Source: Escherichia coli (lineage in GTDB: Bacteria > Pseudomonadota > Gammaproteobacteria > Enterobacterales > Enterobacteriaceae). From it: 64,000 bases of DNA. Positions 5,865 through 10,568 of the stretch are shown in pieces (positions within the stretch are counted from its first letter, which is position 1; the number at the start of each line of letters is the position of its first letter). A program made the translations under genes and the position numbers. The notes under the pieces were generated by a model that worked only from the letters and a program-made list of their open reading frames with translations, was not told the DNA's origin and did no database searches. Location: the NCBI RefSeq assembly GCF_017348835.2, contig NZ_CP071375.1. One strand, 5' to 3'.

Positions 5865-5936
5865 GCGGGAAAACTATTTCGCAACGTCGCGCTTGTGGCT
5901 AAAATAGCCGCCATTTTTCAGCTACTGGATAAGAAT

Positions 5937-7898
5937 GTGACCGTATCTTCTCATCGACTTGAACTGTTAAGCCCGGCACGCGATGCCGCCATTGCCCGCG
6001 AAGCTATTTTGCACGGTGCTGATGCTGTTTATATCGGCGGCCCTGGTTTTGGTGCCCGTCATAATGCCAGTAATAGCCTGAAAGATATTGCCGAGTTGGT
6101 GCCGTTTGCCCATCGTTATGGTGCAAAAATTTTCGTCACGCTTAACACCATTTTGCATGATGATGAGCTGGAACCCGCGCAACGGCTGATTACCGACCTC
6201 TACCAGACCGGCGTCGATGCGCTGATTGTTCAGGATATGGGGATTCTGGAACTTGATATTCCGCCGATTGAACTGCAGGCCAGTACGCAGTGCGACATTC
6301 GTACAGTAGAAAAAGCGAAGTTCCTCTCTGATGTTGGCTTCACGCAGATTGTGCTGGCGCGAGAGCTGAATCTTGAGCAGATCCGCGCGATTCACCAGGC
6401 TACGGACGCGACCATTGAATTCTTTATTCATGGCGCATTGTGCGTGGCCTATTCGGGTCAGTGCTACATATCTCATGCGCAAACAGGGCGTAGCGCCAAC
6501 CGTGGCGATTGTTCACAGGCGTGCCGTTTGCCATACACATTGAAAGACGATCAGGGGCGGGTGGTTTCCTATGAAAAACATCTGCTGTCGATGAAAGATA
6601 ACGATCAGACTGCCAACCTCGGCGCGCTGATTGATGCTGGTGTACGCTCCTTCAAGATTGAAGGGCGTTACAAAGATATGAGCTACGTGAAGAATATCAC
6701 CGCCCATTATCGCCAGATGCTGGATGCCATTATTGAAGAACGTGGCGATCTGACGCGTGCTTCATCAGGTCGTACTGAACATTTCTTTGTTCCATCGACG
6801 GAAAAGACTTTCCACCGTGGTAGCACAGATTATTTTGTGAATGCCCGTAAAGGCGATATTGGCGCGTTCGATTCGCCGAAATTTATCGGCCTGCCGGTAG
6901 GCGAAGTAGTGAAAGTGGCGAAAGATCATCTCGATGTTGCCGTTACCGAGCCACTGGCAAATGGCGATGGCCTGAACGTGTTGATTAAACGTGAAGTCGT
7001 CGGTTTTCGTGCCAATACGGTCGAGAAAACCGGAGAAAATCAGTACCGCGTCTGGCCCAATGAAATGCCAGCAGATTTGCACAAAATTTGCCCGCATCAC
7101 CCACTAAACCGTAATCTTGATCATAACTGGCAGCAGGCACTGACAAAAACCTCCAGCGAACGTCGGGTGGCGGTAGACATTGAACTGGGCGGTTGGCAGG
7201 AACAATTGATTCTGACTCTCACCAGTGAAGAGGGGGTCAGCATAACGCATACGCTGGATGGGCAGTTCGACGAAGCCAATAACGCCGAAAAAGCAATGAA
7301 CAATCTGAAGGATGGTCTGGCAAAACTGGGGCAAACCCTCTATTACGCCCGCGATGTGCAAATTAATTTGCCGGGGGCGCTGTTTGTACCAAACAGTCTG
7401 TTAAACCAGTTCCGCCGTGAAGCTGCTGACATGCTGGATGCTGCGCGTCTTGCCAGTTACCAGCGCGGCAGCCGTAAACCGGTTGCTGATCCTGCGCCGG
7501 TTTATCCGCAAACGCATCTGAGTTTCCTCGCGAACGTTTACAACCAGAAAGCGCGTGAATTTTATCATCGCTATGGTGTGCAGCTGATTGACGCGGCGTA
7601 TGAGGCACATGAAGAGAAGGGCGAAGTCCCTGTGATGATCACCAAGCATTGTCTGCGCTTTGCCTTTAATCTGTGCCCGAAACAGGCGAAAGGCAATATC
7701 AAAAGCTGGAAGGCGACGCCAATGCAACTGGTAAACGGCGATGAAGTATTAACGCTAAAGTTTGATTGCCGCCCATGCGAGATGCACGTCATTGGCAAAA
7801 TCAAAAATCACATACTGAAAATGCCGTTACCGGGAAGCGTAGTGGCATCCGTAAGTCCGGATGAGCTGCTGAAAACATTGCCGAAGCGAAAAGGGTAA
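5937..7898 (+). CDS. rlhA: RlhA (YdcP) peptidase U32-family protein, 23S rRNA 5-hydroxycytidine synthesis
   Basis: Long ORF of U32 family; start uncertain (GTG 5937 preferred from recalled protein length; GTG 5895 alternative). Confidence 0.85.
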   Translation: MTVSSHRLELLSPARDAAIAREAILHGADAVYIGGPGFGARHNASNSLKDIAELVPFAHRYGAKIFVTLNTILHDDELEPAQRLITDLYQTGVDALIVQDMGILELDIPPIELQASTQCDIRTVEKAKFLSDVGFTQIVLARELNLEQIRAIHQATDATIEFFIHGALCVAYSGQCYISHAQTGRSANRGDCSQACRLPYTLKDDQGRVVSYEKHLLSMKDNDQTANLGALIDAGVRSFKIEGRYKDMSYVKNITAHYRQMLDAIIEERGDLTRASSGRTEHFFVPSTEKTFHRGSTDYFVNARKGDIGAFDSPKFIGLPVGEVVKVAKDHLDVAVTEPLANGDGLNVLIKREVVGFRANTVEKTGENQYRVWPNEMPADLHKICPHHPLNRNLDHNWQQALTKTSSERRVAVDIELGGWQEQLILTLTSEEGVSITHTLDGQFDEANNAEKAMNNLKDGLAKLGQTLYYARDVQINLPGALFVPNSLLNQFRREAADMLDAARLASYQRGSRKPVADPAPVYPQTHLSFLANVYNQKAREFYHRYGVQLIDAAYEAHEEKGEVPVMITKHCLRFAFNLCPKQAKGNIKSWKATPMQLVNGDEVLTLKFDCRPCEMHVIGKIKNHILKMPLPGSVVASVSPDELLKTLPKRKG

Positions 7899-7947
7899 AA
7901 CGCCAGTTTTCTGGTTACTCACAACTTATTGAATCTGCATGATATTG

Positions 7948-7980
7948 CCTGCCGGGTAAGGCGTTACGCCGCATCCGGCA
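7948..7980. repeat. REP (repetitive extragenic palindrome)
   Basis: cctgccgggtaaggcgttacgccgcatccggca, a typical E. coli REP unit between convergent rlhA and yncJ. Confidence 0.7.
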
Positions 7981-7989
7981 TCAAATGAC

Positions 7990-8220
7990 TCAACGTTGTC
8001 CCGCTTCTGGTTTGCGCGATTTTTGCCAGTAAAAATGCTCGCGCAAACCTTCCGCCGACTCTTCCGCCACAGCACGCAATTCATCGCTGTCCGCTTCATG
8101 ACGCAGCTGATGATCCACATTCTTTACCCACACAAATTCATGTCCTTTGTGCCCTGCCATGAGTTGTCCTGAAAACAGAGCACACGTTAATAAGACAACC
8201 GATAACGCCTTCGTAAACAT
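7990..8220 (-). CDS. yncJ: YncJ small secreted DUF2554-family protein
   Basis: 76-aa ORF with N-terminal signal peptide; position matches K-12. Confidence 0.85.
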   Translation of the reverse strand: MFTKALSVVLLTCALFSGQLMAGHKGHEFVWVKNVDHQLRHEADSDELRAVAEESAEGLREHFYWQKSRKPEAGQR

Positions 8221-8441
8221 CCTGCCACCTTTTTCTTACCTTTTGCCGCTATGATGCCGATCGTTTCTTGAGGTTATTATTCAGTTTTGCAAATTAGCGC
8301 AAAGAAATTCTGGAATCTTCCTTCCTGATTTTGCATTGCATTCTGCCGTTGCGGCGATTTAGTGCTATTTTCGAGCAAATTACACACGGAGGTAAACACT
8401 AATGTTTACTTTGTTGATATACTCAGCGGCAGGGAGGCGAT

Positions 8442-8618
8442 GTGAAACAAAGCGAGTTCAGACGTTGGCTCGAATCTCAGGGCGTCGATGTAGCGAATGG
8501 CAGCAACCATTTGAAACTCAGGTTTCATGGGAGGCGCAGTGTCATGCCGCGTCACCCCTGCGATGAGATTAAAGAACCATTGCGTAAAGCAATCCTGAAA
8601 CAACTCGGTTTGAGTTAA
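8442..8618 (+). CDS. hicA: HicA toxin (mRNA interferase) of the hicAB type II toxin-antitoxin pair
   Basis: 58-codon ORF with GTG start, not in the ORF track; translation VKQSEFRRWLESQGVDVANGSNHLKLRFHGRRSVMPRHPCDEIKEPLRKAILKQLGLS; 24 nt upstream of hicB. Confidence 0.85.
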   Translation: MKQSEFRRWLESQGVDVANGSNHLKLRFHGRRSVMPRHPCDEIKEPLRKAILKQLGLS

Positions 8619-8642
8619 TCGCCAATTAAAAAGGTTAATGAC

Positions 8643-9080
<438 letters not shown>

Positions 9081-9158
9081 TTACAGTTAACGAAAAGTTG
9101 TCATTTTTAACAACTGATATAGACTGCCGAATCATCTGCACATAATTACGATTCGATA

Positions 9159-10568
9159 ATGAAAAAATACCAGCAGCTTGCAGAACAATTACGCGAGCAG
9201 ATTGCGTCGGGTATTTGGCAACCCGGCGATCGTTTGCCTTCGTTGCGTGACCAGGTGGCGCTTTCTGGCATGAGCTTTATGACTGTCAGCCATGCCTATC
9301 AGTTGCTCGAAAGTCAGGGATATATTATCGCACGCCCGCAGTCGGGTTATTACGTTGCGCCACAGGCAATAAAAATGCCGAAAGCGCCAGTCATTCCAGT
9401 CACTCGAGATGAAGCAGTCGATATCAACACTTATATTTTTGATATGTTGCAGGCCAGTCGCGATCCGTCGGTCGTTCCGTTTGCCTCGGCCTTTCCCGAC
9501 CCGCGACTTTTCCCCCTACAACAACTAAACCGCTCGCTGGCGCAGGTAAGCAAAACCGCCACAGCGATGAGCGTGATTGAAAACTTACCGCCAGGAAACG
9601 CAGAACTGCGTCAGGCTATTGCTCGTCGCTATGCCTTACAGGGCATCACCATTTCTCCTGATGAAATTGTCATTACTGCCGGGGCGTTAGAGGCATTAAA
9701 CCTCAGTTTGCAAGCGGTAACTGAACCGGGCGATTGGGTGATAGTAGAGAATCCTTGTTTCTATGGCGCGTTGCAGGCGCTGGAACGGCTACGGCTGAAA
9801 GCGTTATCGGTGGCGACGGATGTTAAAGAAGGGATAGATCTTCAGGCGTTGGAACTGGCGTTGCAGGAGTATCCGGTGAAAGCGTGCTGGCTGATGACTA
9901 ATAGCCAGAATCCACTCGGATTTACCTTAACGCCGCAAAAAAAAGCACAACTGGTGGCGTTGCTCAATCAGTACAACGTAACGCTGATTGAAGATGACGT
10001 TTACAGCGAACTTTATTTTGGACGGGAAAAACCGCTGCCTGCGAAAGCGTGGGATCGCCACGATGGCGTTTTGCATTGCTCTTCGTTTTCGAAATGTCTG
10101 GTGCCTGGTTTTCGTATTGGTTGGGTCGCCGCCGGAAAACATGCACGTAAAATTCAACGCTTGCAGCTGATGAGTACGCTTTCCACCAGCTCACCGATGC
10201 AGCTTGCGCTGGTGGATTACCTTTCCACGCGCCGATACGACGCCCATCTTCGTCGCCTGCGTCGCCAGCTTGCGGAACGTAAACAACGTGCCTGGCAGGC
10301 ACTGCTGCGTTATCTGCCTGCGGAAGTGAAAATTCATCATAATGACAGCGGTTATTTTCTCTGGCTGGAGCTTCCCGAACCGTTAGATGCCGGCGAATTG
10401 AGCCTGGCGGCACTGACGCATCATATCAGTATTGCGCCGGGTAAAATGTTTTCTACCGGTGAAAACTGGTCACGTTTTTTTCGTTTTAATACCGCGTGGC
10501 AGTGGGGAGAACGTGAAGAACAGGCGGTAAAACAATTAGGTCACCTTATTAAAGAATACCTGAAATAG
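9159..10568 (+). CDS. ydcR: YdcR MocR/GntR-family regulator with aminotransferase-like domain
   Basis: 469-aa ORF; N-terminal winged HTH then PLP aminotransferase-fold domain. Confidence 0.9.
   Translation: MKKYQQLAEQLREQIASGIWQPGDRLPSLRDQVALSGMSFMTVSHAYQLLESQGYIIARPQSGYYVAPQAIKMPKAPVIPVTRDEAVDINTYIFDMLQASRDPSVVPFASAFPDPRLFPLQQLNRSLAQVSKTATAMSVIENLPPGNAELRQAIARRYALQGITISPDEIVITAGALEALNLSLQAVTEPGDWVIVENPCFYGALQALERLRLKALSVATDVKEGIDLQALELALQEYPVKACWLMTNSQNPLGFTLTPQKKAQLVALLNQYNVTLIEDDVYSELYFGREKPLPAKAWDRHDGVLHCSSFSKCLVPGFRIGWVAAGKHARKIQRLQLMSTLSTSSPMQLALVDYLSTRRYDAHLRRLRRQLAERKQRAWQALLRYLPAEVKIHHNDSGYFLWLELPEPLDAGELSLAALTHHISIAPGKMFSTGENWSRFFRFNTAWQWGEREEQAVKQLGHLIKEYLK

Follow-up and report, generated by a model that had tools for sequence, protein, structure and literature searches.

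The 58-codon toxin gene hicA of the chromosomal hicAB operon in Escherichia coli falls below the length cut-off of an open reading frame track

The window analyzed here is a stretch of 64,000 nucleotides of Escherichia coli DNA. Within it, the coding sequence of hicA occupies positions 8442–8618 on the plus strand: it consists of 58 codons, opened by GTG, followed by a TAA stop, and its product (MKQSEFRRWLESQGVDVANGSNHLKLRFHGRRSVMPRHPCDEIKEPLRKAILKQLGLS) is the HicA mRNA interferase toxin, with the catalytic His23 at codon 23. The closest in-frame stop on the 5′ side is TGA 8415–8417, and because no in-frame start other than GTG 8442 precedes codon 24 (TTG 8511), the start of hicA is unambiguous. 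A Shine-Dalgarno-like sequence, GGGAGG (8432–8437, plus strand), is read 4 nt 5′ of this GTG and would serve as its ribosome-binding site. The initial annotation had placed a GTG-started reading frame of 58 codons at 8442–8618, and its coordinates, start codon and length were all exact. The GTG is itself part of the hexamer ATGTGA (8440–8445), which in another frame reads as an ATG immediately followed by TGA, or a "start-stop". This ATG (8440) lies only 2 nt past the Shine-Dalgarno sequence of hicA.

The partner gene, hicB, follows on the same strand at 8664–9080 and encodes the antitoxin and repressor, a protein of 138 aa (RefSeq WP_001270286.1). The order is toxin first with a short gap: hicA ends at 8618, 45 nt 5′ of the RefSeq start of hicB (8664) and 24 nt 5′ of the first ATG of the hicB open reading frame (8643). 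This reading frame (8643–9080, plus strand) would give 145 aa if translated from its first ATG. HicB matched two Pfam families above their cut-offs, HicB_lk_antitox in the N-terminal part (32.8 bits, cut-off 27) and HTH_3 in the C-terminal part (31.4 bits, cut-off 23). The protein is identical both to chain B of PDB 6HPB and to 6HPC in its 138-aa form, starting MRYPVTL, and to PDB 6U0I in its 145-aa form, starting MRETVEI. The start of hicB is accordingly ambiguous between ATG 8643 (MRETVEIM..., with AAGG 7–8 nt 5′) and ATG 8664, the start used by RefSeq and in 6HPB and 6HPC. In a divergent allele, one codon of the seven-codon extension is altered non-synonymously, from E to K.

RefSeq gives the gene order as sutR-rlhA-yncJ-hicA-hicB-ydcR-ydcS in both K-12 MG1655 and PE164. 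Upstream, rlhA (ydcP) encodes the 23S rRNA 5-hydroxycytidine C2501 synthase, of the peptidase U32 family; its longest reading frame in the window is 5895–7898 on the plus strand, opening at GTG 5895 with 667 aa, and RefSeq starts the gene 14 codons further downstream, at window position 5937 (653 aa). Downstream, ydcR (9159–10568, plus strand) encodes 469 aa in the window and in PE164 compared with 468 aa in K-12 MG1655. The coding sequences are 1410 and 1407 nt long, respectively, a small length polymorphism at the 3′ end.

The open reading frame track that accompanied the window did not list hicA. Run at its default minimum of 60 aa, the lister showed a single reading frame between 8230 and 8640, an antisense one of 65 aa with a TTG start (8406–8603, minus strand). 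Lowering the minimum to 30 aa made it report hicA, with its GTG start. Since 58 aa is shorter than 60 aa and the lister accepts GTG starts, the omission was purely an effect of length. The initial annotation had blamed the omission on a length cut-off and on the GTG start; the first part held, and the start codon played no role. The absence is also confined to the length-filtered list, as the gene is present in the RefSeq reference annotation. One further reading frame overlaps hicA, a 54-aa ATG-started frame at 8402–8566. It belonged to no Pfam family and carried no RefSeq annotation in K-12 or PE164, and it was ruled out as a real gene on these grounds.

Several lines of evidence identify the product of the 58-codon frame. 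Among PDB sequences, chain A of 6HPB, whose deposited name is "mRNA interferase toxin HicA", agrees with it at 58 of 58 residues. The Pfam family HicA_toxin (PF07927; COG1724) was matched as well, with an E-value of 3e-7 and a score of 30.9 bits (gathering score 27), residues 5–57 aligning to profile positions 3–58 of 58. At 58 residues, and identical to the 6HPB chain, the product has the size of a small single-domain HicA (50–100 aa) and its dsRBD-like alpha-beta-beta-beta-alpha fold, a topology described for the HicA chain of 6HPB in PMC10865869. Residue 23 of the translation is a histidine (..GSNH23LKL..), at the conserved catalytic position. The profile search and the look at reference genomes that the initial annotation had proposed as checks thus both bore out its description of the product as HicA-like: in RefSeq, the K-12 MG1655 and PE164 coding sequence hicA (WP_000813794.1), "type II toxin-antitoxin system mRNA interferase toxin HicA", corresponds to exactly 8442–8618 of the window. 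At the DNA level, positions 8200–9200 match the E. coli strains PE164 and F2_81 without a single difference (100% identity) and K-12 MG1655 at 99.6% identity; within the aligned stretch 8221–9160, the differences from K-12 fall in hicB. A scan of HicA and HicB against the NCBIfam models (release 20) gave no match for either protein, so the family call for HicA rests on Pfam and on the identity to a solved, named protein.

E. coli hicA is the founding, biochemically and structurally characterized member of its toxin family. As a side observation, its product exceeded the Pfam gathering threshold by only 3.9 bits, a marginal profile detection for a founding member.

Could the 58-codon frame be a chance open reading frame, a noncoding stretch in an untranslated leader of hicB? 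Its shortness, the modest excess of its Pfam score over the threshold and the empty NCBIfam scan would all be in keeping with this idea. Against it stand the identity of every residue to a crystallized protein deposited as HicA, the RefSeq annotation, a Shine-Dalgarno sequence at the right distance from the start, and the way in which the sequence varies. In a natural allele from strain 20Ec-P-124, which is 94% identical, hicA differs from the window at ten positions, and seven of these are third codon positions. Only three residues of HicA are changed (H29Q, C40S and S58N). The substitutions in this divergent allele follow the pattern of a coding frame and point to hicA as the frame under purifying selection, and we consider the probability of a chance frame to be practically nil.

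The same allele bears on the antisense frame at 8406–8603, which might be proposed as the real gene at this position. It is longer than hicA and was the sole frame listed here at the default cut-off, but it has no Pfam family and no RefSeq annotation, and the ten substitutions that alter three residues of HicA alter six in the antisense frame. We regard its claim to be the gene as equally negligible: the 65-aa frame is the usual shadow reading frame opposite a real gene.

The reading frame at 8442–8618 is thus, with near certainty, the chromosomal hicA of E. coli, the toxin half of the reverse-order type II operon hicAB between yncJ and ydcR. Its identity, its start, its family membership, its partner gene and its annotation are all direct observations on the window. 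As the initial annotation had proposed, the frame lies directly 5′ of hicB and is the toxin half of a type II pair, an assignment confirmed by the HicB_lk_antitox and HTH_3 matches, the identity of HicB to 6HPB chain B and the hicAB annotation in RefSeq. The co-crystal 6HPB contains, as its two chains, the same HicA (A) and HicB (B) as the window, and the complex of the two is thereby given by identity to a solved structure. None of this is new: hicA is already annotated, crystallized and mechanistically characterized. As a textbook toxin gene of E. coli, it makes the finding one of little biological import.

The region upstream of hicA contains two features that resemble published regulatory elements of the operon. 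The first is a perfect palindrome with 7-bp arms, GTAAACA-N4-TGTTTAC (8392–8409), which was spotted on visual inspection and then verified with a script; a search of 8200–8680 for inverted repeats of at least 8 bp found none. The second is TGaTATACT (8415–8423, plus strand), an extended −10-like element. A transcript from this element would start at about 8430, at the ribosome-binding site of hicA (8432–8437). Because this layout fits the published description of the P2 promoter, we propose 8392–8409 as a candidate for the HicB operator at P2 (hicO) and 8415–8423 as a candidate for the P2 −10 element; both positions are inferred from the sequence. A scan of 7900–9300 for consensus sigma-70 promoters and terminators found no promoter-like site in 8221–8441 and no terminator. 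The P2 candidate was missed by this consensus scan because it has no −35 match, and the scan carries no information on either P1 or P2.

The second published promoter, P1, was not placed in the window, because the consensus promoter scan and a search for a symmetric CRP-S site were both empty. The latter used the consensus TGCGA-N6-TCGCA with at most three mismatches and found no match in 8240–8441. Across the window as a whole, this pattern gave 268 matches at the same tolerance, below the chance expectation of about 301. For CRP-Sxy sites, an asymmetric layout has been described (PMC10767902).

What the two proteins would do can be read from the literature on the K-12 toxin, to which the HicA of the window is identical. 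The E. coli toxin is a bacteriostatic, mRNA-cleaving protein of 58 aa in which the conserved His23 is important for RNase activity, and HicA proteins in general adopt the dsRBD fold and need no ribosome to degrade RNA (PMC11594946). Ribosome-independent RNase activity and growth arrest are reported for the identical K-12 protein (Jorgensen et al. 2009, as summarized in PMC11594946), and His23 is named as the catalytic residue (PMC11594946; PMC8138530). The antitoxin HicB is fully folded and, on binding HicA, covers His23 (PMC8138530), and the complex of the two is an A2B2 heterotetramer dimerized via the HTH domains of HicB (PMC10865869). Regulation of hicAB by P1 and P2 has also been described (PMC8138530; PMC10865869; PMC6957337; PMC7167474).

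In the mechanism published for this protein, HicA cleaves mRNAs without the ribosome by means of His23, and translation and growth are arrested. HicB binds HicA through its N-terminal partial RNase H-like domain and covers His23, while its C-terminal HTH domain binds the operator. The upstream promoter P1, with a CRP-S site and dependent on CRP-Sxy, produces an mRNA yielding both HicA and HicB. [quoted passage not shown] For the window, the RNase activity, its neutralization and this two-promoter logic are expected by extension from work on the identical K-12 protein.

Among 5,426 complete E. coli genomes, 5,416 have the sequences flanking the locus, and only 4,253 contain hicA DNA. Two deletion alleles were seen. 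The larger, 445 bp in length, was found in about 1,160–1,200 of the 5,426 genomes, in which the flanks are kept and hicA is missing. A MAFFT alignment places it at window positions 8397–8841, so that it starts within the palindrome and ends about 59 codons into hicB. As seen in NZ_LR778146.1, it takes half of the palindrome and the whole of hicA, and what is left of hicB is annotated as a pseudogene, "missing N-terminus". The smaller deletion, of 22 bp, covers window positions 8559–8580 and is flanked by TGCG microhomology; its junction sequence occurs in 811 of the 5,426 genomes. As seen in NZ_CP032426.1, it shifts the frame of hicA past codon 39 ("mRNA interferase, frameshifted" in RefSeq) and leaves hicB intact. 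What remains in this allele is an orphan antitoxin gene next to a dead toxin gene.

Full-length hicA is kept in roughly 63% of the genomes, the window included, and lost in about 37%. According to a published survey (PMC10790755), HicA-domain toxins are rare both in phylogroup B2 and in ST410, which belongs to phylogroup C; this is compatible with lineage-specific loss of hicA. With the gene lost or inactivated in so large a share of complete genomes, the copy in the window might be supposed to be decayed and non-functional, as it is in many E. coli lineages. But it is full length and free of either deletion, its protein is 100% identical to the K-12 toxin, and the adjoining hicB is intact; the chance that it is a decayed copy is very small. 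An intact toxin gene is the reading we retain.

Two more speculative readings arise from these observations. In the first, initiation at the dead-end ATG 8440 would compete with initiation at GTG 8442 and help to hold the synthesis of HicA below that of HicB. Such start-stop competition, if true, would add a translational layer on top of the published two-promoter control. In the second, the 811 genomes that combine an intact hicB with a frameshifted hicA would reflect a role of HicB as a transcription factor independent of its toxin. Taken jointly, we consider these two readings unlikely.

The more practical lesson concerns the track. A fixed 60-aa cut-off hides real small toxin genes, here one of 58 aa, and displays a spurious, longer antisense frame in its place. 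Open reading frame tracks meant for reading genomes should use a minimum shorter than 60 aa, or profile searches should be run alongside them.

Among known systems, the closest to the pair described here is that of E. coli K-12 itself (hicA/yncN; 6HPB chain A; WP_000813794.1). The two share the same protein (58 of 58 residues), the GTG start, the HicB partner and the yncJ-hicA-hicB-ydcR context. Their HicA proteins do not differ, and their DNA is 99.6% identical over 8200–9200. Further relatives are the HicA toxins of Burkholderia pseudomallei, Yersinia pestis (HicA3), Streptococcus pneumoniae and Sinorhizobium meliloti, which have PF07927, the dsRBD-like fold and the catalytic histidine in common with the HicA of the window. 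This histidine is His23 in E. coli, His24 in B. pseudomallei and S. meliloti, and His36 in S. pneumoniae (PMC11594946). In contrast to the E. coli system, several HicA toxins of other bacteria pair with a ribbon-helix-helix HicB instead of an HTH one, and the oligomeric states differ (PMC10865869; PMC8138530).

In its organization, hicAB resembles other type II operons of reverse order. In mqsRA, higBA and rnlAB of E. coli and toxTA of Haemophilus influenzae, as in hicAB, the toxin gene comes first and extra promoters secure the antitoxin (PMC7167474; PMC6957337). The toxTA operon, like hicAB, combines a CRP-S promoter with an antitoxin-repressed P2 (PMC7167474; PMC6957337). The toxins themselves are of another kind: those of mqsRA, higBA, rnlAB and toxTA have folds and families unrelated to HicA (RelE/ParE-like or RnlA), whereas HicA acts independently of the ribosome.
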